Source of the DNA: a virus
Taxonomy: Duplodnaviria > Caudoviricetes
Direction: 5' to 3' (one strand)
DNA: 62,391 nt
IMG/VR virus record: IMGVR_UViG_3300046004_001609
Coordinates: 1 to 62,391 of that record
Position numbers and translations under genes: made by a program. Below the pieces are notes generated by a model that was not told the origin of the DNA, made no database searches, and saw only the letters and a program-made list of their open reading frames with translations. The first letter of the stretch is position 1, and every line of letters starts with the position of its first letter. This document shows, piece by piece, positions 1 through 17,395 of the stretch.

Positions 1-251
1 CCCATGCGCGTTAGTATCCATATATATGGGGCGCGTTGAAAGAGTGAGTGTAGATTAACACTCACCACTCGTACAACCTTTACACCCCGATGTTGTATAT
101 AAGTATATAAAAGCACCCTGCGCTCAAACACCAAACATAACCCACAAATCGCACTCACATTTTCAGAAAACCCCTTTTGTATAAATCCACATAAAATCGA
201 AATCCTTGAGATCCAAAAATTTTCATACGTCAACAAAGTATATACTTATAT

Positions 252-280
252 TTGGATTCCAGAAAAACTATTATTATATT
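252..280 (+). promoter_or_regulatory. Bipartite early/middle promoter TTGG-N19-TATATT
   Basis: TTGG 252-255 and TATATT 275-280; the same 19-nt spacing recurs at six other sites; resembles the Bacteroidota -33/-7 promoter. Confidence 0.65.
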
Positions 281-286
281 TATAAC

Positions 287-463
287 ATGGAAAATAAAAT
301 AAAAAATTTAATAGCATTTTTGCTAATTAGTGGATTTTGGTATAGCGTATTTTCATTTATTATGTGGGAACCAAACGCGTTTGCTTGGCATTGGGGTGTG
401 CGCTTATTGTACTCTTTGGTTATAATTGGTACGTTACATCATAGCGAATTTAAGGAAGACTAG
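287..463 (+). CDS. Small membrane protein, two TM helices (58 aa)
   Basis: ATG 287 lies just downstream of the promoter and is preferred to the track's TTG 206; two hydrophobic segments. Confidence 0.7.
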   Translation: MENKIKNLIAFLLISGFWYSVFSFIMWEPNAFAWHWGVRLLYSLVIIGTLHHSEFKED

Positions 464-514
464 TATATACGTATTAACGTATGAAGTGTAGGGTGTGTGC
501 TTATTCAAGTAAAT

Positions 515-586
515 GCTCCGTTCGTCTAGGGGCTAGGACGTGTCCCTTTCACGGATGAAACACGGGTTCGATTCCCGTACAGAGTA
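515..586 (+). tRNA. tRNA-Glu (UUC), CCA not encoded
   Basis: Acceptor GCTCCGT/ACAGAGT (one mismatch); anticodon stem TGTCC/GGATG with loop CTTTCAC; T arm ACGGG-TTCGATT-CCCGT. Confidence 0.9.
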
Positions 587-590
587 CAAA

Positions 591-691
591 AGGTTGATTG
601 GGGAATACTGCTTATGCAGAGGAGGAGGTTAAAAGCCAAAGTAATGCCAATCGTAATAGTAGTTGTACACGCGCCCATCCTCTACTATCCT
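591..691 (+). ncRNA. Putative structured RNA, family unknown
   Basis: Non-coding and GC-richer; pairings AGG/CCT, GATTGG/CCAATC, CTGC/GCAG, TAGTAG/CTACTA. Confidence 0.5.
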
Positions 692-811
692 CAAAAGTAG
701 AAACAACACCTCCCCAGTTTCTTGTTCAGCGCGCATGGAAGGATTTATAAGGAGGTTGAGAATGGATGACGTTAGTCTTTTGTAATCCGTCAATAAACAG
801 AAAAAGGCGTT

Positions 812-896
812 AGTCAGGTGGCGGAATGGAGAGACGCAGCCCTATCAGGGGTAGAGGCGAAAGAAACTCATACAGGTTCGAATCCTGTCCTGGCTA
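812..896 (+). ncRNA. tRNA-like element 1 (Leu-type frame, aberrant anticodon arm)
   Basis: Acceptor AGTCAGG/CCTGGCT plus A; D arm GCGGAATGGAGAGACGC; T arm ACAGG-TTCGAAT-CCTGT; no canonical 5-bp stem with 7-nt anticodon loop. Confidence 0.75.
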
Positions 897-898
897 CA

Positions 899-1018
899 GA
901 CAGCCCTCTACCTAGCGCTAGGTATGGATCGTAAAACACAGAAGGCCTCTTAACAATGCCCAAATATCTGTTCTCATCGTATAGGAGATAGGACGTTAGT
1001 TAACCTTTGCAAACTGTC
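899..1018 (+). ncRNA. Putative structured RNA, family unknown
   Basis: Closing GACAG/CTGTC; 16-nt palindrome TACCTAGCGCTAGGTA at 909-924; TCTC/GAGA hairpin. Confidence 0.45.
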
Positions 1019-1051
1019 CAACGTCGTTTAAACTACTTTAAAAGGTAATTT

Positions 1052-1150
1052 AGTCAGGTGGCGGAGAGGAAACGCTAACTATGAATAGTCTGAGGAGTGG
1101 AGCATAGTCCTATACTCCAATGACCACAGGTTCGAATCCTGTCCTGACTA
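1052..1150 (+). ncRNA. tRNA-like element 2
   Basis: AGTCAGG/CCTGACT plus A; same T arm as element 1; anticodon arm collapsed to ACTA-TGAA-TAGT; long GGAGT/ACTCC extra arm. Confidence 0.75.
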
Positions 1151-1165
1151 CAAACAAGTAAAACA

Positions 1166-1612
1166 ATGAAACAATTTTTAAAACAACTATTTAATAAAAA
1201 GCAAAAATCAAAAACAATGGTAGGAAAAAAAGTAAAATTAGTAAGTGCTCCATCAGGCAAGCTGAGTTCAGGCAATAGTTTTATTGGTAAAGGTGGCGAG
1301 TTTACTGTAATGTCTCCGTACAATGAACCAAATTCATGGAAGATTGGCCAATCTGGCATTCTAGCTGGATGGGTATATGAATGGGAAATGGAGGGTTTTA
1401 AGTTAGGAATTAAAGAACTTGAAAAAGAACTTTCAGAGACACAAACAAAACTTAACAACATCCAATTCAAAATTGATTGGATGACGGAAACCGGTTCGGA
1501 TGAATTTTCAGAAGATGAATTTAAAGTTTATCAAACTCTTAAATTACTAGAAGATGAGAAACTTTCACGACTTGAAAAAAGTAAATTGATTGCTGAATTG
1601 ATTAAGAAATAA
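1166..1612 (+). CDS. Hypothetical protein inside the RNA cluster
   Basis: 148-aa ORF with A-rich leader; alternative start at ATG 1217; C-terminal coiled coil. Confidence 0.75.
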   Translation: MKQFLKQLFNKKQKSKTMVGKKVKLVSAPSGKLSSGNSFIGKGGEFTVMSPYNEPNSWKIGQSGILAGWVYEWEMEGFKLGIKELEKELSETQTKLNNIQFKIDWMTETGSDEFSEDEFKVYQTLKLLEDEKLSRLEKSKLIAELIKK

Positions 1613-1619
1613 AAATACT

Positions 1620-1723
1620 AGTCAGGTGGCGGAATTGGTTAGACGCACTCCCCGAGTGAGAGAGCACCTCTAGTAATCACTCAAATAAACAAGGTGTTAC
1701 AGGTTCAAATCCTGTCCTGACTA
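1620..1723 (+). ncRNA. tRNA-like element 3
   Basis: AGTCAGG/CCTGACT plus A; D arm GCGGAATTGGTTAGACGC; T arm ACAGG-TTCAAAT-CCTGT; middle replaced by a GAGTGA/TCACTC stem. Confidence 0.75.
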
Positions 1724-1724
1724 C

Positions 1725-1925
1725 GCGTTCTGTTATCAACAGATAGTGTGCCCCACATGAAAAGAAACAGAGTGATGTCTGTAGGTGGTTTGGTATCACA
1801 GTAAGGCTGTGTGTGATTTGTTCAGTCACCTCAAGAAGGGGAAGAGTTTGTAGTAACCGTTGAACTATTCCTAACCCAGCAATGGGGACAGCCACAACAC
1901 CTGTAAGTTGGATAAAATAGGGTGT
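1725..1925 (+). ncRNA. Putative multi-stem structured RNA (~200 nt)
   Basis: TGT-G-CCCCA/TGGGG-ACA long-range stem; CACAG/CTGTG; GTTCA/TGAAC; ACACC/GGTGT; possible pseudoknot. Confidence 0.5.
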
Positions 1926-1934
1926 TAATTAAAA

Positions 1935-2138
1935 TTGCTGGTGGGGTAAGCATTGAAACAGAAGGATGCAATATTAAAGTTTTTGTATTTTTGAACTTAA
2001 ATAAAAATGCCTACAATTTGTTAGTTTAAGTAGCCATATAAACTATCTATTTTGTTTGTTTAGAAAAATAAACTAAGCTTGTAAATGAATTTCTTAGTAT
2101 TTATTATTTGGACGAGGGTTCGAATCCCTCCAGCTCCA
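1935..2138 (+). ncRNA. ssrA: tmRNA 3' portion, apparently truncated (5' boundary approximate)
   Basis: GGAC-GAGGG-TTCGAAT-CCCTC-CAGCTCC-A is a tmRNA tRNA-like-domain 3' end with U70 (Ala identity); no matching GGGGCTG 5' end was found. Confidence 0.6.
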
Positions 2139-2142
2139 CTAT

Positions 2143-2214
2143 TTTCCTTTCGTCTAATTGGCAGGACGAGACATTTTGGATGTCTAAATTGGAGTTCGAA
2201 TCTCTGAGGGAAAA
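2143..2214 (+). tRNA. tRNA-Gln (UUG), CCA not encoded
   Basis: Acceptor TTTCCTT/AGGGAAA; anticodon stem AGACA/TGTCT with loop TTTTGGA; T loop TTCGAAT. Confidence 0.88.
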
Positions 2215-2240
2215 CTTATTATATTTTATTATTTTTTATT

Positions 2241-2248
2241 ATATGTAT
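2241..2248 (+). promoter_or_regulatory. Putative late promoter ATATGTAT
   Basis: Member of the ATAYKTAT motif found upstream of about 20 genes. Confidence 0.55.
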
Positions 2249-2279
2249 AATAAAACAAATATATTAAAACTTTAAATAA

Positions 2280-2702
2280 ATGAAAAGATCAGAATTACAA
2301 TCACTAATTAATGAATGCATTGCTGAAGTATTAGCTGAAGATAAAAAAACAATAGCAATTGCTGAAATTAAACATATCATTGCTGAGAATGAGTTAAGTG
2401 AAGCTGATGTAGAAGAAGCTTTTTTAGGATTTGGAAAAAAACCTGAAGAAAAATTAGCTGAATTAGAAGCAGAATTAAAAAGTAAAAATTCTGAGACTTA
2501 TAAAAGTTGGGTAGATGCTATTAAAACATTAAAATGGAGAGAAAATGGAAAAATCCAAATGATGGCCGATTCTATTAAAAAATATGCTCAAGCATATGGA
2601 TATCCTAAAGATGGGAAGTATGTTGTTAATGGAAAAGTTATTAATTTTAATACTTCTAAAAAAGATAAAGGATTTAACCCTAACCCAATGGGTGGATTTT
2701 AA
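2280..2702 (+). CDS. Hypothetical protein with N-terminal helical tag
   Basis: Starts MKRSELQSLINECIAEVLAE; has its own promoter and terminator. Confidence 0.85.
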   Translation: MKRSELQSLINECIAEVLAEDKKTIAIAEIKHIIAENELSEADVEEAFLGFGKKPEEKLAELEAELKSKNSETYKSWVDAIKTLKWRENGKIQMMADSIKKYAQAYGYPKDGKYVVNGKVINFNTSKKDKGFNPNPMGGF

Positions 2703-2723
2703 TTAATACCAATATAATAATAG

Positions 2724-2748
2724 AGCCAATCGAAAGATTGGCTTTTTT
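2724..2748 (+). terminator. Rho-independent terminator
   Basis: AGCCAATC-GAAA-GATTGGCT followed by a T tract. Confidence 0.9.
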
Positions 2749-2750
2749 GT

Positions 2751-2779
2751 TTGGCTTCCATCACTCTTAAACGTATATT
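2751..2779 (+). promoter_or_regulatory. TTGG-N19-TATATT promoter
   Basis: Exact motif and spacing, directly after the terminator and before ORF 2805. Confidence 0.7.
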
Positions 2780-2804
2780 TAATCATAATTAAAAAATAAA
2801 GGTT

Positions 2805-3296
2805 ATGAAAAAGTTAGATGAATTAGTAGCAAATAGTTTAAATCCGTATACTATTGTACGTATGGTATCATTAAATACAGAAGAACAATTAGATAAAATT
2901 GAACATGACATGCCAGAATTTGAGAACGACATGACTGGTGATGTAGTTGAAATTGAAATTTCTCCTGTTGAATCGATAATTTTTATAAATAGAAATGATT
3001 TAATTACTTCTACTAGAAGATTAAAAGATATAGGTGTTAATTTTAAAGTGACTAATATTGTTAACGAAATATTTGAAATGAATAGCTTAGATGAGTTATT
3101 GTTAAGTTTAGAAATAGATGAAAATCCTGAACTTACTGCTGAGTTTTTTCCTGGGTTGCTTTGTCAAAGACAAAAAGCAATTAATATTATTAATTCAGTA
3201 TTTAAATCTAATTTTGATGTTGATGATGTATTAGATAGAATTAGGACTAAAGGTTCAGGTTCATTAAATGAATTTCACAAAAATATTTTAATTTAA
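2805..3296 (+). CDS. Hypothetical protein
   Basis: 163-aa ORF after a promoter; AAAGGTTATG start context. Confidence 0.8.
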   Translation: MKKLDELVANSLNPYTIVRMVSLNTEEQLDKIEHDMPEFENDMTGDVVEIEISPVESIIFINRNDLITSTRRLKDIGVNFKVTNIVNEIFEMNSLDELLLSLEIDENPELTAEFFPGLLCQRQKAINIINSVFKSNFDVDDVLDRIRTKGSGSLNEFHKNILI

Positions 3297-3355
3297 ACGT
3301 GCCCCGTTACATATTTATTAGTATACTAATTAAAAACAAATAAAAACAAAAATTT

Positions 3356-3532
3356 ATGAAAAATTTCATCATCACCGCAGTTACAGCTTTAATTCTAACT
3401 AGCTGCGTAACAGCAACAGAAGAAGTAGCAGCAGTACCTACAGTTGATAGCACTATCGTTATGGTAGATACTACAGCAGTTGATTCAATTTCAGTATCTA
3501 CACCAAGTGTAGCTACAACTACTGTAAAGTAA
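3356..3532 (+). CDS. Small lipoprotein (58 aa), absent from the ORF track
   Basis: MKNFIITAVTALILTSC signal with LTSC lipobox; S/T/V-rich body; ATATTTAT at 3311; hairpin downstream. Confidence 0.8.
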   Translation: MKNFIITAVTALILTSCVTATEEVAAVPTVDSTIVMVDTTAVDSISVSTPSVATTTVK

Positions 3533-3551
3533 TTAGAAAATGATTAAAACG

Positions 3552-3581
3552 GGTTGCTTCATATTAAGATATGGAGCAATC
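3552..3581 (+). terminator. Terminator-like hairpin
   Basis: GGTTGCTTCATAT-TAAG-ATATGGAGCAATC; weak T tract. Confidence 0.55.
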
Positions 3582-3681
3582 TTGGTTTAAATCAACGTTT
3601 TAAGTGATAAAAAATTTTATTCAATTAGTTATATAAAAATTAGTTAGTAATTTATTATAATCGCTTTTTAGTAATTTTAAA

Positions 3682-4113
3682 ATGAATATAAATAATATAT
3701 TTAATGCCTTTAATGAGGATTTTGAAGATGAAGAAACAGAAATGTTAATCGACTTTTCGGAACATCCTCTATATTGGATAGGGGGATTTAATAAAATAAT
3801 AGGTAACTATGCCTTCTTTAGTAAATATACTTCTAAAGTATTTAAAAACATTTCCCCTGAGTTAAATATTGATGATGTAGAAAAGGCAGGCGAATATTTA
3901 ATGTTTGATAAGGCATGGGGTTATATAAAGAATATAGATTTAAATAATACATTTCATATTAAATGTATAGGTAAGAAAGCATCTGTTGAATTTTTATCAA
4001 ATTTAAATGTGGCTATAACGTTTTACGAGCCATTAGAAGAATATGAAAAATGTGCTTTATTAAAAAATATAGAAAATAAAATTAAAGAATTTAAATTTGA
4101 ACTTGGCAGCTAA
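3682..4113 (+). CDS. Hypothetical protein with C-terminal UVR-like hairpin
   Basis: EEYEKCALLKN resembles the UvrB/UvrC motif. Confidence 0.75.
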   Translation: MNINNIFNAFNEDFEDEETEMLIDFSEHPLYWIGGFNKIIGNYAFFSKYTSKVFKNISPELNIDDVEKAGEYLMFDKAWGYIKNIDLNNTFHIKCIGKKASVEFLSNLNVAITFYEPLEEYEKCALLKNIENKIKEFKFELGS

Positions 4114-4131
4114 TTTTTCCGAACGTATACT
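4103..4131 (+). promoter_or_regulatory. TTGG-N19-TATACT promoter
   Basis: Same spacing as the other copies; upstream of ORF 4198. Confidence 0.6.
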
Positions 4132-4197
4132 TGGATTACGGGTTTTGAGATAAGAAATAAGAAATAGAGTTATAAACAAATAAAATAAAATAAACAT

Positions 4198-4392
4198 ATG
4201 AGAAACAGAGAAGCAGTGTTAAGAAAAATGGATAGTGTAGAATCTAACTTAACTAAATTATCATTTACCCTTAATCAAGGTAACCGTGAAGGTAGTCATG
4301 AAATAATTGAAAATGTCAGAGAACAAATAGAACAATTGAAGTTATATATTGAATCTGAACCAATTTCAGGAAGTGAATTAAATAAAGAATAA
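4198..4392 (+). CDS. Small helical hypothetical protein
   Basis: 64-aa ORF with A-rich leader. Confidence 0.75.
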   Translation: MRNREAVLRKMDSVESNLTKLSFTLNQGNREGSHEIIENVREQIEQLKLYIESEPISGSELNKE

Positions 4393-4413
4393 GAATAAAT
4401 ATAAATAAAAGTT

Positions 4414-5199
4414 ATGAAACTAACAGCCGAACAAATCCAGGATAACTGGAATCAATTTATAGGTTATATTGATACTTATATCTCAGAACCTAGAGCATCT
4501 AAACTAAAGGAATTCTATAACAAATATTCTGAACGAATTATCATGATGCCAGCGGCACATAAGAAAGAATATCATAATGCATTTCCTGGAGGATACATTG
4601 AACATGTTAATCGTGTTATTGATGCTTCACTTAAAATCAATTCAGTATGGGTTGAATTTGGAGTTGAACAAAATTATACTATTGAAGAATTAGTATTTTC
4701 AGCTATGAATCATGATTTAGGTAAAATGGGTGACGAGGAAAATGAATCATATATCCCCCAAACTGATCAGTGGCGTAAAGATAAATTAGGTGAAGATTAT
4801 ACATTTAATAATAAACTTGAATTTATGTCAGTACCAGATAGAGGTTTATTTTTATTAAATTCACATGGGGTTAGTTATACCAAAAATGAATGGTTGGCTA
4901 TCAGATTACATGATGGATTATATGATGAAGCGAATAAACCATATCTTTTATCTTGGGCTCCAGAAACTAAAGTTAGAACAGCATTAGTACATATAATACA
5001 TCAGGCTGATTTTTTAGCTGCTAAGGTAGAGTTTGAACGTGAATGGTTTCCTAAATTTAAAAGTAACTTGGCTAGTACAGGAAAAGGTAGTACATTAACT
5101 AATAATCAATCAACTAAAAAGGCTCCAATCAAAACAAAGGCATTAGGTAACATTCAAAGTGAAGGCCTAAAGAATGTAATGGATGGATTTTTTAATTAA
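4414..5199 (+). CDS. HD-domain phosphohydrolase (YhaM-like)
   Basis: HNAFPGGYIEH, HDLGK, RLHDG and HQAD motifs. Confidence 0.85.
   Translation: MKLTAEQIQDNWNQFIGYIDTYISEPRASKLKEFYNKYSERIIMMPAAHKKEYHNAFPGGYIEHVNRVIDASLKINSVWVEFGVEQNYTIEELVFSAMNHDLGKMGDEENESYIPQTDQWRKDKLGEDYTFNNKLEFMSVPDRGLFLLNSHGVSYTKNEWLAIRLHDGLYDEANKPYLLSWAPETKVRTALVHIIHQADFLAAKVEFEREWFPKFKSNLASTGKGSTLTNNQSTKKAPIKTKALGNIQSEGLKNVMDGFFN
5068..5096 (+). promoter_or_regulatory. Intragenic TTGG-N19-TACATT promoter
   Basis: Exact spacing; lies in the 3' end of the HD gene, upstream of ORFs 5257 and 5528. Confidence 0.5.
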
Positions 5200-5214
5200 C
5201 TAATAATTAAACTT

Positions 5215-5246
5215 AAAGGTTGTGATTAATTTCACGACCTTTTTTT
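5215..5246 (+). terminator. Rho-independent terminator
   Basis: AAAGGTTGTGA/TCACGACCTTT stem plus T tract. Confidence 0.8.
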
Positions 5247-5256
5247 ATTTAAAACT

Positions 5257-5523
5257 ATGATAACAATTATTATTTTATCAATTATAGTATTAGTACTAGG
5301 ATTTACTAGTTACAATTTACTTAAAAAAAACGAAAAGTGCGAGGACATAATTAAATCATATGAAGAATACATGATTAATTTATCTGCAACAATTGAATCA
5401 TCAGATAAAAAACTAAAAGAAATTGATTCTAAAGGTACATTTGAAGGTGATGATGAAGTAGGTTACTTTTTTAAACAACTAATATTCTTGCAAGAACAAT
5501 TAAACATCTTCAAAGTTAAATAA
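5257..5523 (+). CDS. Membrane-anchored coiled-coil protein
   Basis: N-terminal hydrophobic helix followed by heptad-like sequence. Confidence 0.8.
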   Translation: MITIIILSIIVLVLGFTSYNLLKKNEKCEDIIKSYEEYMINLSATIESSDKKLKEIDSKGTFEGDDEVGYFFKQLIFLQEQLNIFKVK

Positions 5524-5527
5524 AAAT

Positions 5528-6229
5528 ATGTCTAAGAACTATTTCACCCAGGAAACTGAAGATGCTATTATAGCATATAATTCTAGTACTGACTTTGAAG
5601 AAAGAAGTAGAATATATGAAACTAAAATTCATTATGCTTTTTTTAAATTAACTCAAAATATTATTCACACATTTAAATTTTACTACACTGAAGTAAATAA
5701 TATTGAAGATTTACAACATGAAGTAATTACATTTCTTTTATCTAAAATACATAAATTTGATCCAACCAGAGGAGCAAAAGCCTATTCATATTTTGGAACT
5801 ATTGTCAAACGATGGTTAATTTTATATAATGAAACTAACTATAAAAAGCGCGTTAAATCAACTCCAATTTCAACAATTGAAGAAGATGGTAACCACTCTT
5901 ATATTACTGATGAAAACAATACATCAGTTAATAAATTATCTCAAAATGATAAATTATCGTTATTCATAGATTTATATGTTGAATATTGTACATTAAATAT
6001 TTATAATTTATTCCCAAAAGAAACAGATGCTAAAATAGCCGATGCCGTTCTTGAGCTATTCAGAAAGCGAGAAAATTTAGATGTATTTAATAAAAAGGCA
6101 CTATACATATATATTAGAGAGATGATAGATGTAAAAACACCTAAAATTACTAAAATAGCGGATAAATTATATGATACATATAAAAAAGGTTACATATTTT
6201 ATATAGAAAACGGATATATAAAATTTTAA
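5528..6229 (+). CDS. Phage sigma factor (gp55-like, sigma70 region 2)
   Basis: EDLQHE...KFDPTRGAKAYSYFGTIVKR matches the sigma region 2 pattern (FDP....F.TY). Confidence 0.75.
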   Translation: MSKNYFTQETEDAIIAYNSSTDFEERSRIYETKIHYAFFKLTQNIIHTFKFYYTEVNNIEDLQHEVITFLLSKIHKFDPTRGAKAYSYFGTIVKRWLILYNETNYKKRVKSTPISTIEEDGNHSYITDENNTSVNKLSQNDKLSLFIDLYVEYCTLNIYNLFPKETDAKIADAVLELFRKRENLDVFNKKALYIYIREMIDVKTPKITKIADKLYDTYKKGYIFYIENGYIKF

Positions 6230-6266
6230 TAGTTCATATTTATAATAAATAAATACTAATAAAATT

Positions 6267-6611
6267 ATGAGTAGTTTAGATTCCGACATATTTGGTGATA
6301 AAAAACTTAAGGATCTTTTTCAAGAGATATATAATAATCAAAAGAAAAAAGAAAAACAAATATCTTCATTAATTGATGAATTAAAACCAATGATCGAAAG
6401 TATTGGTGACGCTACATTAATTGTACCATTACTTAAAGAATATTTAGAAATAGGTGTTAAAAATGATGAGCAATTAATTAAAATGGCTACTATTATTCAA
6501 CGTTGTTTAACTACTAATAATAGCGGAACAGGTGAGGATGGTTTTACTATTTCGGATGCTGAAAAAGAGCAACTATTGAAAGATATAAATAAAATAAACG
6601 AGAATAAGTAA
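6267..6611 (+). CDS. Hypothetical helical protein, possibly small terminase subunit
   Basis: 114-aa helical ORF after a late motif; function is inferred from size and helical pattern only. Confidence 0.6.
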   Translation: MSSLDSDIFGDKKLKDLFQEIYNNQKKKEKQISSLIDELKPMIESIGDATLIVPLLKEYLEIGVKNDEQLIKMATIIQRCLTTNNSGTGEDGFTISDAEKEQLLKDINKINENK

Positions 6612-6613
6612 AA

Positions 6614-7879
6614 ATGGGCGGCTATGGTTTTAGTAGTTTAAATAAAAATTTAAATTCAAAAAATAATAATACTAATTTACTTGAGGTATCAAGTTTAAGT
6701 AGTCTAATCACAGCAGTTAGAGTTATATATATATTACTGGATGATAGTGATCCTATAAAATTTAAAAAATATGGTGGGTGGAATGGGTTAGGTACTATAG
6801 AATATGAATTAGTAACTTCTCCTGGAACTACTTCAAACGCTTTTCCTCTTTATTCAAATTTAAAAAATTACCCATTAATAAATGAGATAGTATATACTAT
6901 TTCTTTTCCTTCTAATTTAATAGGAAAAGCTAATGTTAGTGAAAGAAAATATTATCTAAATACTATAAATTTATGGAATCATCCACATCATAATGCCTAC
7001 CCATCTATAGCTAATGAACCTGATCCTCCACAACAAAAGGATTATATTCAAACTCAATTAGGTAGTGCTAAAATAATTACTGATGAGAATAAACAAATAT
7101 CTTTAGGTAAAACATTTAAAGAAAGATCTAATATACATCCTTTATTACCTTTTGAAGGTGATGTTATACAAGAAGGTAGATGGGGTAATTCAATACGTTT
7201 AGGTAGTACAGTTCAATACACTCCAAACAATTGGTCCACATCCGGAACTAATGGAGATCCTATTACTATTTTTAGAAATGGACAAGGAGAACAAACAGAT
7301 GAAGGATGGATTCCAATTACTGAAGATATTAATAACGATGAATCTTCTATTTATTTAACAAGTACTCAAATTATACCTTTAAAGGCGTCTAGCACTAATT
7401 ATGTAAGTTATGAAGGTTCGGGTTATGAAGCTCCTTCTGCACCAGATAAATTTAATAGTAAACAAATAATATTATCTTCTGGAAGATTAGTATTTAATTC
7501 TAGTAATGATAACATATTATTAAGTTCTGCTAAATCAATTGATTTAAATTCAAAAGCATCAGTTAACATAACTGCAGATAAATTTATAGTTCAATCTAAT
7601 AATACCTATTTAGGTAATATAAAATTAGCAACAGAGCCACTAATGTTAGGTAAAAAAACAACAGATGTATTACGAGATTTAATTAATAAACTTACCCCAT
7701 TAGTCACAGCACTTCAATCAATTCAAACCGCTCCTACTGTACCAGGCGCCCCAGTTGTATTTTTAAATTTAATAGAACCAACAACTAATTTATTAATTGT
7801 ATTAAATTCTTTAAGTAATGAATTAGGAGCTTCTTCAGCAAATTGTACTTTAATTTCTAAAAATAACTTTACAGTATAA
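6614..7879 (+). CDS. Baseplate hub/spike protein (gp5/GpV-like)
   Basis: N-terminal PLINEIV OB-type motif; EGDVIQEGRWGNSIRLGST; beta-rich C-terminus; upstream of gp25/gp6-like genes. Confidence 0.65.
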   Translation: MGGYGFSSLNKNLNSKNNNTNLLEVSSLSSLITAVRVIYILLDDSDPIKFKKYGGWNGLGTIEYELVTSPGTTSNAFPLYSNLKNYPLINEIVYTISFPSNLIGKANVSERKYYLNTINLWNHPHHNAYPSIANEPDPPQQKDYIQTQLGSAKIITDENKQISLGKTFKERSNIHPLLPFEGDVIQEGRWGNSIRLGSTVQYTPNNWSTSGTNGDPITIFRNGQGEQTDEGWIPITEDINNDESSIYLTSTQIIPLKASSTNYVSYEGSGYEAPSAPDKFNSKQIILSSGRLVFNSSNDNILLSSAKSIDLNSKASVNITADKFIVQSNNTYLGNIKLATEPLMLGKKTTDVLRDLINKLTPLVTALQSIQTAPTVPGAPVVFLNLIEPTTNLLIVLNSLSNELGASSANCTLISKNNFTV

Positions 7880-7881
7880 AA

Positions 7882-8982
7882 ATGGCCGGCGAAACTAAAG
7901 AAGAAATATTAAAAAGTGAAAAAGCTAGATCTAATAGATTTGCTATTGGTAATCCTGAAGTAGATCTTACAGCAGCTGTAAAATTAAATAAAGACCCATA
8001 TCTAATTCCCGATGGAATAAATACTGCAGGTTGGAGTTATTTTCAACGATATTTACAAAAATTATATAAAGATAATCCTGAAAAATTACAAGAATTAAAT
8101 ACTAATGAAGGATTTTTAGTTAGTCAACAGATAATAAATGATTTTAACCAAAACTATATTATTAATGTAGGTGATAGTTATGATATATGGAAAGTTCTTC
8201 AAAATGGAAAAATAGAGCGTGTAACAATAAATAGACCAACTGTTACATCTTTTAGATTTTTAGATAGATTTCCAAATGGTTTAATAGATATAGCTACTGT
8301 TAAGGCAGCTCAAAATTACCATTTAATAACAAGTTTTTCAGGAGTAAATAGAGTATTAGTAGATGGGTGGGTAGGTAGTCAAACATCTCAATTAGTATAT
8401 CCTGGAAGATACCTCACATATCTAGAATACTCAGAAGAAGAAGACATAAATGGTAAACCTCTAGGTATACTTACCAAAGATGGTATAGTATCATCTAGAC
8501 CAAAATATAAATCCGGTTTAATCCCAGCAATTTGGGGTAATAGAAGATTTGTAGTAGATGCTAGGGTTGTAGATCAATATATTAATAATGTAGAAACTGG
8601 TGTCATTGCCAGACCTATCCCAGAAAAAATAGGAGACTCAGGAACAGGAGTAATTCCATTTGAATATTTTATTCCCTATGAACCTTCATTACATGATGCT
8701 ACTTTACAGTTTAAAGATCAAGTAAAATTCCCAGGCGCTACTACTCCAGGTAGTTGGGACACAATAGGACAAGAAACCATAGTATATAAAGATCCTACAA
8801 AAATAAATGCTTTTATAAAAGAACAACAATTAAAAGATAAAAAACTTAGATATGTTTCAGATGTTAAACAAACTATTACATCATCTAAAGAAGATATTGC
8901 AAAACAAAAAGCCCTTAAAAAACAAGCTTATCAAGATTCACTAACCAGAAGTAAAGAATTAGCTAAATTATACGCAAAATAA
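7882..8982 (+). CDS. Hypothetical protein, possible peptidoglycan-binding-like segment
   Basis: TVKAAQ...LVDGWVGSQT motif. Confidence 0.7.
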   Translation: MAGETKEEILKSEKARSNRFAIGNPEVDLTAAVKLNKDPYLIPDGINTAGWSYFQRYLQKLYKDNPEKLQELNTNEGFLVSQQIINDFNQNYIINVGDSYDIWKVLQNGKIERVTINRPTVTSFRFLDRFPNGLIDIATVKAAQNYHLITSFSGVNRVLVDGWVGSQTSQLVYPGRYLTYLEYSEEEDINGKPLGILTKDGIVSSRPKYKSGLIPAIWGNRRFVVDARVVDQYINNVETGVIARPIPEKIGDSGTGVIPFEYFIPYEPSLHDATLQFKDQVKFPGATTPGSWDTIGQETIVYKDPTKINAFIKEQQLKDKKLRYVSDVKQTITSSKEDIAKQKALKKQAYQDSLTRSKELAKLYAK

Positions 8983-9951
8983 ATGGCTATACAAGATAAA
9001 ATACCTGTATTATTAGCAAATAAAACTCAAGAATTAGTTGAGTTTGTAGTACCTGCTATAGTAAATTTAGCATTCCAAATTGGTATGGAAAAGTTAGATG
9101 ATACAACAGGTGAAATTGTATTACCTGAACTTTGTATCCCTGCAGTTGAATTACAAAAAGTATTAAATATAAGAAATAATATAGTAAGTAAATTAAACTC
9201 AGCTTCAAAATCAATAGAAGCATTACAAAAACCACTTAATGCTTTAAACACAACTGTAAACATTTCAGACAAATCACTTAAAGCTCTAAATATAGCAATA
9301 TTAGCTGCTGAAATAGCAATTCCATTACTACCCACTTCTGTACCAGGAACACCTAACCCCGCAGGTATAGCATTAACCACTTTAACTAAAATAAAAGATT
9401 TTAAAACACCAATAACTTATAAAATAAATATAGTAAAAAATGGTATTAATTCTATAACAACCACATTAGATTATGTTAATTCAATTTTAAGTCAAATTAT
9501 AACTTTATTAAATTCAATAGATGCATATTTATTAAAATGTGGTGGTGCTACCACAGATTTAACAAACTCAAACGCAAATATAAATGTAAACGCAAATGTA
9601 AACACAAATATAAACACAAATGTAAACGCAAATACAAACGCAAATGCAAACGCAAATGCAAACGCAGATGAAAATAAAAAGTTAACACCATTATCACCAT
9701 ATTTGCTTAATGTTGAACAAAATGCTAATAAGGTAAAAATAGATCCAAATAAAAATGAAATATATCAAGGCTTTTTATTTGAAATTGTTGAAGAACCATT
9801 CTCTCCTACTGTAAATAAAAGAAGAGCGGTGGCCAAGAATAATAATGGTATTATATTGTTACAAACACCTTCGTCATTTACTACTGATACTCAAGTATTA
9901 TTCACAGAACTTAAACTAATAATTGATAAAAATAATTTAAAAGCTAATTAA
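8983..9951 (+). CDS. Hypothetical helical baseplate-region protein with (N-x) repeat
   Basis: Coupled ORF; long amphipathic helices. Confidence 0.8.
   Translation: MAIQDKIPVLLANKTQELVEFVVPAIVNLAFQIGMEKLDDTTGEIVLPELCIPAVELQKVLNIRNNIVSKLNSASKSIEALQKPLNALNTTVNISDKSLKALNIAILAAEIAIPLLPTSVPGTPNPAGIALTTLTKIKDFKTPITYKINIVKNGINSITTTLDYVNSILSQIITLLNSIDAYLLKCGGATTDLTNSNANINVNANVNTNINTNVNANTNANANANANADENKKLTPLSPYLLNVEQNANKVKIDPNKNEIYQGFLFEIVEEPFSPTVNKRRAVAKNNNGIILLQTPSSFTTDTQVLFTELKLIIDKNNLKAN
9571..9666 (+). repeat. In-frame hexamer tandem repeat encoding (N-[AVIT])x16
   Basis: AAYRYA units read directly from the sequence. Confidence 0.9.
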
Positions 9952-9968
9952 TTTAATATTTATAACAA

Positions 9969-10334
9969 ATGAAACAAAACGAATTAAAAGATTTAATTAA
10001 AATTGCCGTAAAAGAAGCAATCCAAGAAGAATTAAAAGATATTCTTTTGGAAGCAATTAAATCAAACAAACAACCAATAAACGAATCTTACCAAGTAGGC
10101 GCAGATAGAACATTAAGATTTAATAGTTCAAACGTTCCTACACAACCTTTAATTACAGCTGTTAACCCAAAACAATCATACATGGATATAATAGCTGAAA
10201 TGTCAAAACCAACTCCGTCAGGATTTGAAGGTGATTTTAAAGTATCAGGTGAAATTAATACAATGTCTGAAGGTAGCGCATTACCTGGTGGACAACTTGG
10301 TTTAGATCAAATAATGAATTTAATTAAAAAATAA
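9969..10334 (+). CDS. Hypothetical protein with N-terminal helical tag
   Basis: Starts MKQNELKDLIKIAVKEAIQEE; late motif at 9956. Confidence 0.85.
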   Translation: MKQNELKDLIKIAVKEAIQEELKDILLEAIKSNKQPINESYQVGADRTLRFNSSNVPTQPLITAVNPKQSYMDIIAEMSKPTPSGFEGDFKVSGEINTMSEGSALPGGQLGLDQIMNLIKK

Positions 10335-10741
10335 TGGCATTCGGAGCAAAAAAAATATTTCCAATTGATACTAAGCCCGGAACGGCTGTAGGAGTATCTA
10401 TTCCTTTTAATGCTCCAAATGTATTTTTTCAAACATATACTACTCAAGATGCTATACGAAATAATTTATTAAATTTCTTTTTAACAAATCAAACAGAAAG
10501 ATATTTAAATAATCAATTTGGAGCAAATTTAAGAGCATTTATATTTGAACAAATATCTTCAGATAATATAACCTCTTTAAAAGAAAATATTCAATTATTA
10601 ATAAGTAAATATTTTAATAATGTAAAAGTAGAAAAATTAGATGTGTTAGAATATCCCGACAATAATGAAATAAATGTTAAATTAACATATAGTATAATCA
10701 ACACTGGTGTAACAGATCAAGTTCAAATATCATTCACATAA
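10334..10741 (+). CDS. Baseplate wedge subunit (gp25/GpW-like)
   Basis: NLLNFFLTNQTERYLNNQFGANLRAFIFE signature. Confidence 0.9.
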   Translation: MAFGAKKIFPIDTKPGTAVGVSIPFNAPNVFFQTYTTQDAIRNNLLNFFLTNQTERYLNNQFGANLRAFIFEQISSDNITSLKENIQLLISKYFNNVKVEKLDVLEYPDNNEINVKLTYSIINTGVTDQVQISFT

Positions 10742-12591
10742 TGGCTGTAAATAAAAATATAAAATACATAAATAAAGATTTTAATGAGTTTAGGACTAAT
10801 TTAATTGACTACTCTAAAACTTATTTTCCTACAACATATAATGATTTTAGCCCAGCATCACCAGGAATGATGTTTATGGAAATGGCAGCGTATGTAGGTG
10901 ACGTTTTATCATTTTATTTAGATAATCAAGTACAAGAAAACTATTTACAATTTGCTCGTCAATCAAATAACTTATTTGAATTAGCATATATGTTTGGTTA
11001 TAAACCAAATGTAACAGGAATAGCAGTTACTAACATAGATTTTTACCAAAAAGTACCATCTAAAATGTCTGGTTCAACATATATTCCTGATTTTGATTAT
11101 ACATTACTTATTAACGGAAATGCTACTGTAACTTCAACAAGTGGGGTTTCATTCCTAATTGCTGACCCAGTAGATTTTTCAGTATCAAGTTCAGGAGATC
11201 CTACCGAAATTTCTGTATATGAAGTTTCAGGAGGAAACCCAACATATTATCTATTAAAGAAAACACGTAAATCTATATCATCTACAATTAATACAAAAAC
11301 ATTTTCATTTAACTCACCTGTTAAATTTTCAACAGTTGAAATAAATGCTACAAATATAGTAGGTATTTTAGATTGTATTGATAATGAAGGAAATACATGG
11401 TATGAAGTAGATTATTTAGGACAAGAAATGGTATTTGATTCAATTAAAAATACAAACACTAACGATCCAAATTTATCTCAATATAATGGGGATACCCCAT
11501 ATTTATTAAAGTTGAAGAAAATACAACGTAGATTTGCTTCTCGCTTTAAAAACTCAAATACATTACAAATTCAATTTGGGTCAGGTACTACATCAGATTC
11601 TGATGAAATAATTATTCCAAACCCAGATAATATAGGTATTGGTCTACCATTTGAACAAACAAAATTAACAACAGCATATGCTCCATCAAATTTTTTATTT
11701 ACAGATACTTATGGGATTGCCCCTTCAAATACTACTTTAACATTTAGATATTTAACAGGGGGAGGAGTATCAGCAAATGTAAATGCTAATAGTTTAACTA
11801 AATTAAATGGTACAACTACTTTTTTAAATGCAAATTTAAATACTACAACAGCAAATAACATATTTGCTTCATTAGCTGTTACTAACCCACAAGCAGCAAG
11901 TGGAGGAGGAGATGGAGATACAATTGAAGAAATTAGACAAAATTCATCTGCTAATTTTGCTAGTCAATTACGTAATGTAACTCAAGATGACTATTTAGTA
12001 AGAGCATTAAGTATGCCTGCTAAGTATGGTAATATAGCTAAAGCATATATTGAACCAACTAAAGCACAAAGTATACAAGCTGGCGAAGCAGCTGGTATAT
12101 TAGATTTATATATTTTAACAAATGATGTTAATGGTAAATTAAATACAGCGTCCTCAGGTTTAAAACAAAATCTGATTACTTATCTTTCTTTATATAGAAT
12201 GATAAATGATGCTATTAATATTAAAGACGGCTTTATAATTAATATAGGAGTTAATTTTGATATTATTATTCTTCCAAATTACAATAGTAATGAAGTTTTA
12301 ACAAAATGTATTACAGCATTGCAAGGATATTTTGCAATTAATAATTGGCAAATAAACCAACCAATTGTACTAAGAGAACTTTATATTCTTTTAGATAAAA
12401 TAGAAGGAGTACAAACAGTAAAAACGATAAATATTTCAAATTTAACTGGAACAAATTTAGGATACTCAGCGTTTGCATATAATATTTCTGGTGCAACTAA
12501 AAATAACGTAGTTTACCCATCGATAGATCCTATGATTTTCGAAGTGAAATATCCTTCTACAGACATTCAAGGTAGAGTAGTATCATTATAA
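10741..12591 (+). CDS. Baseplate wedge subunit (gp6/baseplate J-like)
   Basis: YNDFSPASPGMMFMEMAAYVGDVLSFY; GGGDGDTIEEIRQN; QLRNVTQDDY. Confidence 0.9.
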   Translation: MAVNKNIKYINKDFNEFRTNLIDYSKTYFPTTYNDFSPASPGMMFMEMAAYVGDVLSFYLDNQVQENYLQFARQSNNLFELAYMFGYKPNVTGIAVTNIDFYQKVPSKMSGSTYIPDFDYTLLINGNATVTSTSGVSFLIADPVDFSVSSSGDPTEISVYEVSGGNPTYYLLKKTRKSISSTINTKTFSFNSPVKFSTVEINATNIVGILDCIDNEGNTWYEVDYLGQEMVFDSIKNTNTNDPNLSQYNGDTPYLLKLKKIQRRFASRFKNSNTLQIQFGSGTTSDSDEIIIPNPDNIGIGLPFEQTKLTTAYAPSNFLFTDTYGIAPSNTTLTFRYLTGGGVSANVNANSLTKLNGTTTFLNANLNTTTANNIFASLAVTNPQAASGGGDGDTIEEIRQNSSANFASQLRNVTQDDYLVRALSMPAKYGNIAKAYIEPTKAQSIQAGEAAGILDLYILTNDVNGKLNTASSGLKQNLITYLSLYRMINDAINIKDGFIINIGVNFDIIILPNYNSNEVLTKCITALQGYFAINNWQINQPIVLRELYILLDKIEGVQTVKTINISNLTGTNLGYSAFAYNISGATKNNVVYPSIDPMIFEVKYPSTDIQGRVVSL

Positions 12592-12605
12592 AAATAAAAT
12601 AAACA

Positions 12606-13712
12606 ATGGCCACATATAAAATCTTCCCAACCAAAGATACAACTTTATATTCTATATATCCAGAAATGAATACAGGATTAGATGAAATATTAGAAGCATC
12701 TTTAGAAGTAGGAAATTTAGGAACACCTTCCCCTCAAGCAAGTCGTTTTCTAATTCAATTTGACTCAAATGAAATAACAGATGTTATTAATAATAAAATA
12801 TCAGGTTCACAATGGGAATCTAATTTAAAATGCTTAGTAGCTAATGTTACTGCTTTAAATACAGATACAACTATAAATGCATTTGCTGTTTCTCAATCTT
12901 GGGATATGGGCACAGGTAGATTTGCAAATGTCCCTGAAACACAAAACGGCGCTAGTTGGATATGGAAAAATTATCAAGGAGGAACCAAATGGACTACTAG
13001 TTCATTCTCAGCAGGATCAACAGGATCTTATTCTTCCTCAGTTTCACCTGGAGGAGGAACTTGGTATACAGCTTTATCTTCATCTACTACATTCGGATAT
13101 TACACAGATAAAGATATTATTCTTAATACTACACCAATTGTAACTCAATGGTATACTGGTTCTATTCCTAATGATGGATTTATTGTAAAGCAAAAAGATG
13201 AATTTATGGATAATGAAAATACTCAACCAAAAATGAAGTATTTTTCAATTGACACCCATACCATTTATCCTCCAAGTTTAGAATTTAAATGGGTAGATGC
13301 TACATTTAATACTGGATCTTCTACATTACCAACAATTCGTAAAACACCACTTGTAGTAACTATAGGTGATAACCCAGGATATTTCTACTCAGGAAGTATA
13401 AATCAATTTAGAGTATATTCAAGACCGGAATACCCAGATAGAATATTCGCTACAGCTTCATATTATACTCAAAACTTTTATTTACCAACATCTTCTTATT
13501 ATGCTATAAAAGATTTAGATACTAATGAATATGTAGTAGAATTTGATAAAACATATACCCAATTAAGTATGGATACTACAAGTAGCTTATTTACATTATA
13601 TATGGCTGGATTACAACCAGAAAGATATTATAAAATATTAATCCAAACCACAGTAGATGGAAGTACATTAGTATTAGATAATGATTATTACTTTAAAATA
13701 ATTAATGGATAA
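12606..13712 (+). CDS. Virion structural protein, beta-rich (DNRLRE-like N-terminus)
   Basis: KDTTLYS...NTG...SRFLIQFD pattern; baseplate context. Confidence 0.65.
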   Translation: MATYKIFPTKDTTLYSIYPEMNTGLDEILEASLEVGNLGTPSPQASRFLIQFDSNEITDVINNKISGSQWESNLKCLVANVTALNTDTTINAFAVSQSWDMGTGRFANVPETQNGASWIWKNYQGGTKWTTSSFSAGSTGSYSSSVSPGGGTWYTALSSSTTFGYYTDKDIILNTTPIVTQWYTGSIPNDGFIVKQKDEFMDNENTQPKMKYFSIDTHTIYPPSLEFKWVDATFNTGSSTLPTIRKTPLVVTIGDNPGYFYSGSINQFRVYSRPEYPDRIFATASYYTQNFYLPTSSYYAIKDLDTNEYVVEFDKTYTQLSMDTTSSLFTLYMAGLQPERYYKILIQTTVDGSTLVLDNDYYFKIING

Positions 13713-14062
13713 TGGAAACTGTAAATTTAAATAAAAGAACTTATGCTAAAAGTCAATATCAAAAAGTTATAGATACTAACTTTAATCAATTAGCACAATC
13801 TCCATCTATTACTAACCCAAATATAATAACCCCTACTATATCAGTTGAAGAATTTTTTTCTAAATATGTTCAAATATTTTTTACAATACCTAAACTTGGA
13901 GCTACAAATTCTCATGAGTATCTTGTAAAAACAAGTTTAGAATATATTGGAACAAATCCTGCAAGTAATGAAATAAATGCATTAATTGATGAAATTAATA
14001 TATTACAACAACAAAATTTAGATCTTAATCAACAAATAATAGACCTACAACTTCCTAAATAA
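13712..14062 (+). CDS. Hypothetical structural protein
   Basis: Coupled ORF; C-terminal coiled coil. Confidence 0.75.
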   Translation: METVNLNKRTYAKSQYQKVIDTNFNQLAQSPSITNPNIITPTISVEEFFSKYVQIFFTIPKLGATNSHEYLVKTSLEYIGTNPASNEINALIDEINILQQQNLDLNQQIIDLQLPK

Positions 14063-16350: not shown

Positions 16351-16363
16351 TATTTATAAATAA

Positions 16364-17395
16364 ATGGGACTTTTATACGCTAAAAATAAAATATATAATG
16401 GTTATGATGGTAATACTATAGGATTTCAAGCATCCGCAAGCGTTTCATCTTCTGCTTTTTCAACTGTAACAAGTGGGAGTTTTTATCTTTCCTCCCCTTT
16501 ACCTTCATTAATTATAGCAGGTAATACATATTTACCATTTAGTGGTTCATTTCAAGAATTAAGATTTTATAAAATTAATTTAAAGGAAAGTTATTTTGAT
16601 GATTATGTAATGGATCCTTATTCAATAGAAGGTAACCAACTTATTGGACCCCAAAGCGCCTTAAACTCTCTAATATTTAGAGCTCCATTAGGAACAGTAC
16701 TAGATAGTGGATCAGATACAACAAGAACATCAATCCACCCAAGAATATCAACAATCCCTCCTGTTCAATCATTTTATTTATCAGGAAGTAGTACATACAC
16801 ATTAAATGGTACATATTCATTTGTACCACAAAACGAAATAATTTACCAAGATCAGTTTCATACTGGTGTAAAAAATGCAGTATCTGAGAAAATTAGAATT
16901 ATTAGTTCATCTTTAGCACCAGGAAATGTTTTATCTCAATATATTTCAATTCAACAACAAACAACACTAGACGAAACATTTACTAAAGATGTTAATTATG
17001 TAGAAGTAGCATTCTCACCTCAAGATGAAGTCAACGATGATATTATATCTCAGCTTGGCTCATTCAATATAGGTAATTATATTGGTGATCCGAGACAAGT
17101 ATCTTCATCATTAACATACTACCCAGATTTTAATGTGTTAAGAAATAGTTACTTCTCTAAATATACTAGTAATTACAATTTATGGGATTATATAAGATTA
17201 ATTAAATTTTATGATAACTCATTATTTAAAATGATTCAAGATTTTACACCTGCAAGAGCAGGTTTAGCAACTGGAATAGTTATTAAACAAACATTATTAG
17301 AAAGAAATAAATACCCGTTACCTCAAGCTACTACAAATAGTGAAATAGCATTTATAGGTAGCCCAACAACACGAACAATTAATATACCGTATTAA
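16364..17395 (+). CDS. Baseplate/tail protein, probable continuation of the upstream gene
   Basis: FSGSFQELRFY (LamG C-terminal motif); FKMIQDFTPARAGLATGIVI. Confidence 0.7.
   Translation: MGLLYAKNKIYNGYDGNTIGFQASASVSSSAFSTVTSGSFYLSSPLPSLIIAGNTYLPFSGSFQELRFYKINLKESYFDDYVMDPYSIEGNQLIGPQSALNSLIFRAPLGTVLDSGSDTTRTSIHPRISTIPPVQSFYLSGSSTYTLNGTYSFVPQNEIIYQDQFHTGVKNAVSEKIRIISSSLAPGNVLSQYISIQQQTTLDETFTKDVNYVEVAFSPQDEVNDDIISQLGSFNIGNYIGDPRQVSSSLTYYPDFNVLRNSYFSKYTSNYNLWDYIRLIKFYDNSLFKMIQDFTPARAGLATGIVIKQTLLERNKYPLPQATTNSEIAFIGSPTTRTINIPY

Follow-up and report, generated by a model that had tools for sequence, protein, structure and literature searches.

We analyzed the complete IMG/VR virus record IMGVR_UViG_3300046004_001609 (linear, 62,391 bp, CheckV completeness 39%), referred to below as the window, and found at positions 515-2215 an array in which tRNA genes, tRNA-like elements lacking a decoding arm (TLs; TL1, TL2, and TL3), further structured RNAs, and one open reading frame (ORF) follow each other closely on the plus strand. 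Judged by sequence and predicted fold, each TL is the top half of a leucine-type tRNA in which a maintained insert replaces the anticodon and variable arms. The TL frame apparently defines a large viral family that has not been described before. We give slightly better than even credence to the reading that the array is a co-transcribed series of cassettes matured by the tRNA-processing machinery, the TLs being both cut sites and cargo.

An initial annotation, made from the sequence alone, had proposed an RNA operon at 467-2214 in which tRNAs and tRNA-like elements alternate with structured RNAs. The order of elements given there was borne out by ARAGORN, Rfam, the ORF list, and an alignment of the TL frames. 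The array begins with a canonical tRNA-Glu (anticodon UUC; 515-587; called by ARAGORN, 50 bits with the Rfam tRNA model), which is followed by RNA A (591-811), TL1 (812-896), RNA B (902-1051), TL2 (1052-1150), an ORF of 148 aa (1166-1612), TL3 (1620-1723), RNA C (1725-1928), a 5'-truncated transfer-messenger RNA (tmRNA; about 1947-2141), and a canonical tRNA-Gln (anticodon UUG; 2143-2215; called by ARAGORN, 51 bits with Rfam). All elements are co-oriented on the plus strand, and the gaps between them measure 2-15 nt. The structured RNAs were also correctly placed close to tRNA-like 3' ends: RNA A starts 4-5 nt, RNA B 5-6 nt, and RNA C 2 nt past the preceding discriminator base. The octamer ATACGTAT, from which the operon had been counted, was indeed present at 467, just past the stop codon of a small ORF, but showed no sign of a role. 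The organization of the array is well beyond chance. The G+C content of 401-1100 and 1601-1900 is raised (41-48.5% versus 21-33% downstream).

TL1, TL2, and TL3 were identical over their 5' 15 nt and 3' 27 nt. In this shared frame, the acceptor stem measures 7 bp and bears A73, the D arm is leucine-type, and the T arm is canonical. TL1 and TL3 scored 35.2 and 40.6 bits, respectively, with the Rfam tRNA model (gathering score 29), with long insertions at the position of the anticodon arm. ARAGORN forced a "tRNA-Pro" call on TL1; TL2 was called by neither program and was identified from the frame alignment. Within the common tRNA-Leu-like frame, the anticodon arm of TL1 is replaced by a hairpin with a 4-nt loop and a second hairpin, and other hairpins are found in TL2 (50-nt insert with a hairpin and a possible pseudoknot) and TL3 (51-nt insert). 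With respect to the tRNA family (RF00005), the TLs possess the acceptor stem, the D arm, and the T arm with a TPsiC-type loop; a 5-bp/7-nt anticodon arm, U33, and a readable anticodon are lacking. Because the anticodon arm is absent, the TLs fail membership of this family and should not be filed as tRNA genes. Among 96 family members with a canonical D arm, a 5-bp stem with a 7-nt loop occurred at the anticodon position in a single one, and that one was devoid of U33. By sequence, then, the TLs appear to have no decoding role. Their initial description as anticodon-less tRNAs was right as to the missing arm but incomplete, as the TLs hold conserved structured inserts of their own. The possibility that they are tRNAs with introns was rejected: the shortest members (71-75 nt) are already without an anticodon loop, and inserts go down to 23 nt, which is below the requirement of a tRNA-Leu. 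One element in a related locus, L028:2485-2560 (76 nt), has the acceptor and T arm of a TL, but its D arm differs, its discriminator base is U, and a regular stem of 5 bp closes a 7-nt loop that contains U33. It was called tRNA-Ser(UGA) by ARAGORN and may represent either a relative of the TL family that decodes or an intermediate stage in the evolution of the family.

To define the family, 188 related viral loci (designated by L-numbers) were combined with the window, giving 189 sequences with a total of 1.6 Mb. A relaxed pattern retrieved 272 copies of the TL frame in 149 of the 189 sequences, and an exact 14-mer of the TL 5' end occurred in at least 120 IMG/VR stretches. Detailed statistics refer to the first 139 loci plus the window, which contained 186 unique copies of 71-213 nt (median 106 nt). 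When 49 family members were aligned, 96.7% of the frame cells were paired. Both-sided changes were seen for three of three D-stem pairs and four of five T-stem pairs, values that were not reached in any of 500 shuffles; the D stem had been no part of the sequence selection for this alignment. That the D and T stems re-pair after both-sided changes points to selection on the RNA.

The D arm of the TLs agreed with that of six of six true tRNA-Leu genes from related contigs, but with that of none of the five tRNA-Ser or tRNA-Tyr genes compared. A73 was present in all three TLs of the window and in 161 of the 186 family members. Of the identity rules given for Escherichia coli tRNA-Leu (PMC9976931), A73, a Leu-type D loop with G18G19, and the D/T contacts are all found in the TLs at the sequence level. 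According to the same source, E. coli tRNA-Leu can be charged without its anticodon and variable arms if A73 and the D/T-loop contacts are retained. Because the frame keeps the elements that suffice for charging this minimal tRNA, leucylation of the TLs is possible. It cannot be general, since 90 of the 186 copies carry a non-canonical D arm, some with D-loop hairpins. In L031, L080, L083, and L098, some TLs exhibit such an extra D-loop hairpin beside the main insert; thus, the frame tolerates decoration at a second site. A U at position -1 was found in 146 and C74 in 179 of the 186 copies. The true tRNAs of the window are alike in this respect and carry the same A-C trailer. C75 was present in 12 of the 186 copies, and this scarcity shows that CCA is not encoded in the TLs.

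The inserts of the 96 copies with a canonical D arm ranged from 23 to 119 nt. Among all 186 unique copies, 150 inserts were singletons, and 16 small clusters were formed. TL1 has a counterpart in L012 with 98.9% identity over 89 nt, the flanks of the two being unrelated. TL2 was 86% identical to another copy in L012, with two base pairs changed on both sides, and compensatory insert changes were likewise evident between L065 and L070, L063 and L138, and L012 and L045. A homologue of TL3 occupies the equivalent position in L121. These comparisons point to evolutionary maintenance of the TL inserts.

Cassette order differed among the window, L121, L073, and L012, which share the same cassettes. 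Positions 1-20000 of the window were compared with the records of L012 (G003) and L121 (G004). With G003, the common parts were only TL1 (99%), TL2 (86%), and frame halves. With G004, only 1126-1776 (90%) and bits of RNA A and RNA C were held in common, and the left edge of this block at 1126 falls within the 3' half of the TL2 frame. Cassettes have been exchanged between otherwise unrelated phages.

The TL frame was unmatched in 50,697 GenBank phage records, and TL1 gave no match at E values up to 0.05; when GenBank phages were searched with the array, tRNA-Glu alone was matched. Among 185,579 species genomes, the exact frame 21-mer was present on 18 contigs only, all of them metagenome-assembled and nine labeled as Bacteroidota. 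This distribution led us to reject an origin of the frame from a host tRNA-Leu. Freshwater phages with TL arrays probably infect Bacteroidota. Rfam searches of window positions 1-3000 (E up to 10) returned tRNA and sub-threshold tmRNA and abiF matches only, and in 12 related loci (E up to 0.1) no further known family was detected except for one freshwater-1 match. The latter (RF02979; L020:4124-4186; 70.1 bits versus a gathering score of 72) lies inside a phage tRNA/TL array, and the orphan freshwater-1 motif may be another cassette of such arrays. No description of the TL family was found in the literature, subscription journals and supplementary files being outside the search; neither the TL family nor RNA A, RNA B, or RNA C is contained in Rfam 15 or was found in the searchable literature.

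The segments between the tRNA-like elements, on whose conservation the initial annotation depended, recur in related viral contigs. RNA C represents a widespread structured phage RNA family. An exact 18-mer from its 3' hairpin occurred in 52 viral contigs, and an alignment of 30 sequences yielded 23 consensus pairs, 12 of which showed compensatory changes. Among the 43 copies with both end motifs, 36 begin 2 nt past a tRNA-like 3' end, and in 25 the 5' end of a TL follows within 10 nt. RNA A recurs in five other contigs; four (L121, L073, L072, and L052) were aligned with the window copy, and L099 matched its 3' part only. The alignment contains a conserved loop closed by a stem that is formed by four different complementary sequences. 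Directly upstream of RNA A in L121 (3090-3215) and L073 (1400-1490), a G+C-rich RNA-like segment closed by a long-range G-run/C-run stem was observed, which the window does not contain. RNA B is related to RNAs of L132 and L044. By their alignments, RNA A, RNA B, and RNA C are recurrent families of predicted structure, and apart from one sub-threshold similarity, they were without an Rfam family match.

That similarity concerns the RNA B hairpin at 938-972, which resembles the abiF motif (RF03085; 28 bits, gathering score 37). The E value of the match was 0.036 over 3 kb and 1.7e-4 over the 62-kb record. The hairpin spans the entire 37-position model, all pairs of the outer and inner stems form, and most of the conserved loop bases are present. 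In the inner 3-bp stem, both-sided departures from the consensus were seen in the window and in L044. Sub-threshold abiF matches (E up to 10) were also returned by 4 of 14 control genomes, and an abiF gene (Abi_2, PF07751) was not detected at E values up to 1 in the 39% of the genome that the record covers. According to a recent report (10.1101/2025.04.15.648962), the abiF motif RNA (RCd22) is an antitoxin that binds the AbiF toxin. The likeness of the RNA B hairpin, the only cargo that could be identified, suggests that at least part of the array may counter host defense. In a separate comparison, antisense control of the phage's own genes was rejected: the longest complementary stretches of the TL inserts and of RNA A, RNA B, and RNA C to the rest of the window measured 9-13 nt, no longer than in shuffled controls.

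The 148-aa ORF lies between two TLs, starting 15 nt after TL2 and ending 7 nt before TL3. It is real; a protein with 87% identity is encoded in a second viral contig (L121), where it stands in the same TL-ORF-TL setting. It had no match in Pfam or PHROG, and its best Atlas score, 0.81, was at chance level. A second protein-coding cassette, an ORF of about 39 codons between tRNA-like elements, was noticed at L121:3727-3845 and at about 1815-1935 in L073.

The tmRNA piece comprises the post-tag region, a degenerate pseudoknot region, the T arm, and the 3' acceptor strand. The initial annotation had called it a remnant, and this was confirmed. Two matches of 24.6 and 33.6 bits (threshold 47) were obtained with Rfam RF00023, covering the T arm, the 3' acceptor strand, and the post-tag region. 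The piece is 77% identical to the 3' part of an intact tmRNA in L130, the match beginning only past the tag stop codon. The 3' acceptor strand and T arm were located at 2109-2141. A pattern scan upstream revealed no full 5' acceptor strand; a 5-nt partial partner was recognized by reading at about 1943-1947, where three terminal pairs, including 3:70, cannot form. The segment thus examined is devoid of an end-paired tRNA-like domain with G3:U70, of pseudoknot 1 with a tag frame, and of a score at the gathering level. ARAGORN detected no tmRNA in the window, although it called one in L094. An intact or permuted tmRNA was rejected, as the 5' acceptor strand is absent and the permuted-model match ends at tRNA-Gln. 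The piece is a dead or reused 3' remnant. Intact phage tmRNAs adjoin TLs at L094:553-939 on the minus strand, where ARAGORN gave a tag of 27 residues ending in AVAA, and at about 1729-2165 in L130, where the tmRNA was recognized by sequence. A contig of 390 nt from an RNA library joins a TL 3' end to 161 other letters and then to window 1955-2131 with 7 differences. By eye count, the 5' part of the L130 tmRNA is just as long as this spacer, so that a full tmRNA gene probably persists in a close relative.

The layout of the array is that of a tRNA-punctuated polycistron, with co-oriented tRNA and tRNA-like elements directly abutting delimited RNAs. Neighboring TLs and tRNAs in the collected loci were on the same strand in all 222 adjacent pairs and opposed in none. 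Of these pairs, 154 were spaced by 100-1000 nt, which is the size of a cargo, and 20 by less than 30 nt, i.e. they were cargo-free. The gaps of 100-1000 nt across the collected arrays included 126 unique ones: 80 were without a long ORF (39% G+C), 19 were mostly ORF (29% G+C), and 27 were ambiguous. A terminator scan produced two matches inside the array, at 1797-1811 and 2148-2171. Both were taken as false because they are located within a hairpin of RNA C and within tRNA-Gln, respectively; no credible terminator-like site was left within 467-2214. The first convincing intrinsic-terminator-like hairpin (2722-2745, plus strand; a 10-pair stem followed by a T run) is situated after an ORF at 2280-2702. 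A scan for sigma-70-type promoters, which did not extend to Bacteroidota-type promoters, returned sites no more frequently than in shuffled sequence. A TATATTTG box is found at 247-254, upstream of a 58-codon hydrophobic ORF (287-463) that stops 52 nt short of tRNA-Glu. The box resembles the Bacteroidetes -7 promoter element and could be the promoter of the whole array. No RNA-processing enzyme was detected among the 30 ORFs scanned in the window, whose record is 39% complete.

Metatranscriptome data were available as assembled contigs only, from four runs of four studies, and were mapped to positions 400-2300. Short contigs lying wholly inside RNA C (1740-1910) were observed in three of the four studies. 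RNA A was covered at 693-807 in run X19 only. TL frame halves joined to other inserts reached summed word depths of up to 320. Contig ends near 1740 and at 1892-1910 probably reflect branching at family-conserved sequence rather than RNA ends. In the four runs, no contig covered the ORF (1166-1612) or the flanking stretches 400-463 and 2256-2300, a lack that does not count as evidence. The segment at 2109-2141 drew contigs of other, commoner tmRNAs (X19, X20, and X22; depths up to 262-789), so that cover there is uninformative on this phage. Altogether, the contigs document presence in RNA libraries and not ends, strand, or transcription as such.

From these findings we derive the following model. 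The array (515-2215) would be transcribed as a polycistron. Host RNase P would cut the 5' ends of the two true tRNAs and the three TLs, and RNase Z or exonucleases of the host together with its CCA-adding enzyme would mature the 3' ends. A short mRNA would thereby be released along with RNA A, RNA B, and RNA C. The frame would provide end maturation, an L-shaped elbow, stability, and possibly leucylation, and the insert would be the working part that binds a host or phage factor. Recombination inside the conserved frame would allow cassettes to be exchanged. With its AbiF-antitoxin-like hairpin, at least part of the array would act against host defense.

Several points weigh against this model. 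The RNA-library contigs carry no end or strand information and may include carried-over DNA. RNA A lacked an upstream tRNA-like element in four of the five copies compared, so that other processing or promoters must exist. The RNA B hairpin fails the abiF threshold and is present as a single copy. The 90 copies with a non-canonical D arm speak against general leucylation. Hypervariable inserts would also be expected under relaxed constraint. Finally, the census is biased, since the loci had been collected by TL or RNA C motifs, and the regular expression used for the family required a near-consensus acceptor and T arm, so that the invariance of these two helices is partly selected.

A wider interpretation, which we regard as less likely than not and advance tentatively, is that of a natural "tRNA-scaffold display." The top half of a Leu-tRNA would stabilize hundreds of aptamer-like inserts, and these, along with RNA A, RNA B, and RNA C, would be decoys or inhibitors of proteins of host defense or RNA metabolism; recombination at the frame would trade cassettes. 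With the same reserve, the frame would be suited to RNase P, the CCA-adding enzyme, and perhaps leucyl-tRNA synthetase and EF-Tu. Equally tentatively, the RNA B hairpin would be the first readable example of such a module, and the array would be an RNA counter-defense island.

That the TLs are punctuation only, i.e. degenerate tRNAs kept as RNase P and RNase Z sites with drifting middles, is unlikely. The initial annotation had assigned them a role as processing punctuation, with which co-orientation, the lack of an internal terminator, the conservation of U(-1) and C74 as in true tRNAs, the abutting of cargo on tRNA-like ends (36 of 43 for RNA C), and the 154 of 222 neighbor gaps of cargo size (100-1000 nt) all agree. 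The middles are, moreover, highly variable both in length (23-119 nt) and in sequence, and precedents exist in plant mitochondrial t-elements (PMC1920247) and in the tRNA-miRNA-encoded RNAs (TMERs) of murine gammaherpesvirus 68 (MHV68). Drift is, however, difficult to reconcile with inserts that are maintained (99% identity of TL1 across unrelated contigs, compensatory pairs in several clusters) and that are long and well folded instead of being minimized. Conservation of A73, the acceptor sequence, and the Leu-type D arm exceeds the needs of RNase P and RNase Z, 20 of the 222 neighbor pairs leave no room for cargo, and RNA A does not always stand behind a tRNA-like element. The earlier inference is partly supported: the arrangement agrees with punctuation, but the TLs are themselves cargo with conserved inserts and also occur in cargo-free pairs.

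It is quite unlikely that the TLs are above all charged decoys or donors. In that case leucyl-tRNA synthetase, or a different enzyme or toxin that recognizes the tRNA acceptor end, would use them as substrates or be titrated by them through the conserved frame, with the insert only tuning the interaction. The near-invariant acceptor, A73 in 161 of 186 copies, and the Leu-type D arm speak for this idea, and the frame has just those elements that are reported to suffice for leucylation of a minimal E. coli tRNA-Leu (PMC9976931). Half of the copies, however, have a non-canonical D arm, and the identity rules are those of E. coli, which may not be the rules of the host. Moreover, more than 150 different inserts would be left unexplained.

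A role at the DNA level is improbable. The frame halves would then be recombination sites, somewhat like integron attC sites, and the RNA shape would be left over from an origin in tRNA genes. The mosaic nature of the array, the junction within the TL2 frame, and the different cassette orders in L121, L073, and L012 are in keeping with this notion. It does not account for D and T stems that keep pairing through both-sided changes, for the strict co-orientation with tRNAs, or for the abundance of TL frames in RNA-library contigs, and no integrase was detected among the 30 window ORFs scanned in the 39% complete record. It is very improbable that the TLs are merely decaying tRNA pseudogenes and the intervening segments non-functional spacer: arbitrary anticodons forced by ARAGORN on several TLs and the truncation of the neighboring tmRNA would fit, but 272 copies with a near-identical frame, covariation in the frame, RNA C, and RNA A, the presence of RNA C in 52 contigs, and a G+C content raised above that of an AT-rich genome do not.

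The carrier of the array is a T4-like phage from lake water. The record encodes a T4-type portal, a gp23-type capsid protein, a large terminase, and baseplate wedge proteins, all on the plus strand, and half or more of its sampled words were present in at least 16 lake-water DNA runs. Two further genes were noticed. The ORF at 5528-6229 showed a weak match to sigma-70 region 2 (21.4 bits versus a cut-off of 24) and may encode a phage sigma factor. The 1351-aa protein encoded at 56018-60073 contains collagen triple-helix repeats near its N terminus and is probably a tail fiber.

Clusters of tRNA genes in phages are usually read as helpers in codon usage or as cover against tRNA-cutting defenses. 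Here, most of such a cluster consists of non-decoding structured RNAs. A single frame carries more than 150 unrelated inserts, and at least three further RNA families show covariation. The system is of high interest because the TL family is large, its unrelated inserts are numerous, and three more families of structured RNA lie around it that had not been described. If the frame is a natural scaffold, it would open a large catalogue of evolved RNA modules for screens of protein partners and anti-defense activity, reveal a natural principle for designing stably expressed RNAs in Bacteroidota, and offer a concrete and testable bacterial case of tRNA-like punctuation. If RNA B neutralizes AbiF, it would extend the phage-borne mimicry of RNA antitoxins to a second toxin family.

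Among known RNAs, tmRNA (RF00023) resembles the TLs in that a large structured insert replaces the anticodon arm of an acceptor/T-arm domain, and the phage arrays themselves contain tmRNA genes, intact ones in L094 and L130 and a remnant in the window. Unlike tmRNA, the TLs have a full Leu-type D arm, A73, short inserts (23-119 nt), and no G3:U70. A conserved tag reading frame was not discerned between TL2 and its L012 relative, the one pair inspected by eye. The tRNA punctuation of animal mitochondrial transcripts is a further case of tRNA-punctuated processing. In plant mitochondria, t-elements (PMC1920247) are non-decoding tRNA-like structures that set the ends of neighboring RNAs in a similar layout. 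In the MHV68 TMERs, pre-miRNA hairpins stand behind a viral tRNA-like element and are reported to be set free by tRNase Z, and the coupling of tRNA-like elements to RNA C (36 of 43) looks alike. Unlike t-elements and TMERs, the array belongs to a bacterial virus, has many cassettes per operon, and contains TLs with variable domains of their own; its processing would follow the same principle.

The closest counterpart of a single cargo is the abiF motif/RCd22 RNA (RF03085), whose whole model is matched by the RNA B hairpin. Unlike in abiF systems, the hairpin of RNA B is present in one copy instead of two, is not accompanied by an Abi_2 gene in the record, and is embedded in a larger phage RNA; hypothetically, RNA B could serve as an AbiF decoy. 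The tRNA cluster of phage T4 encodes two stable RNAs of unknown function, "species 1 and 2." There, too, small stable RNAs lie among the tRNA genes of a T4-like phage, the likeness lying in the genomic setting; T4 has two such RNAs and no family built on a common frame. In engineered tRNA scaffolds, the anticodon arm gives way to the RNA to be expressed, which owes its defined ends and its stability to tRNA processing and the L-shape. The TLs share this architecture and may well work alike. Unlike the engineered constructs, they are natural, phage-encoded, and leucine-type, and they exist in hundreds of variants.

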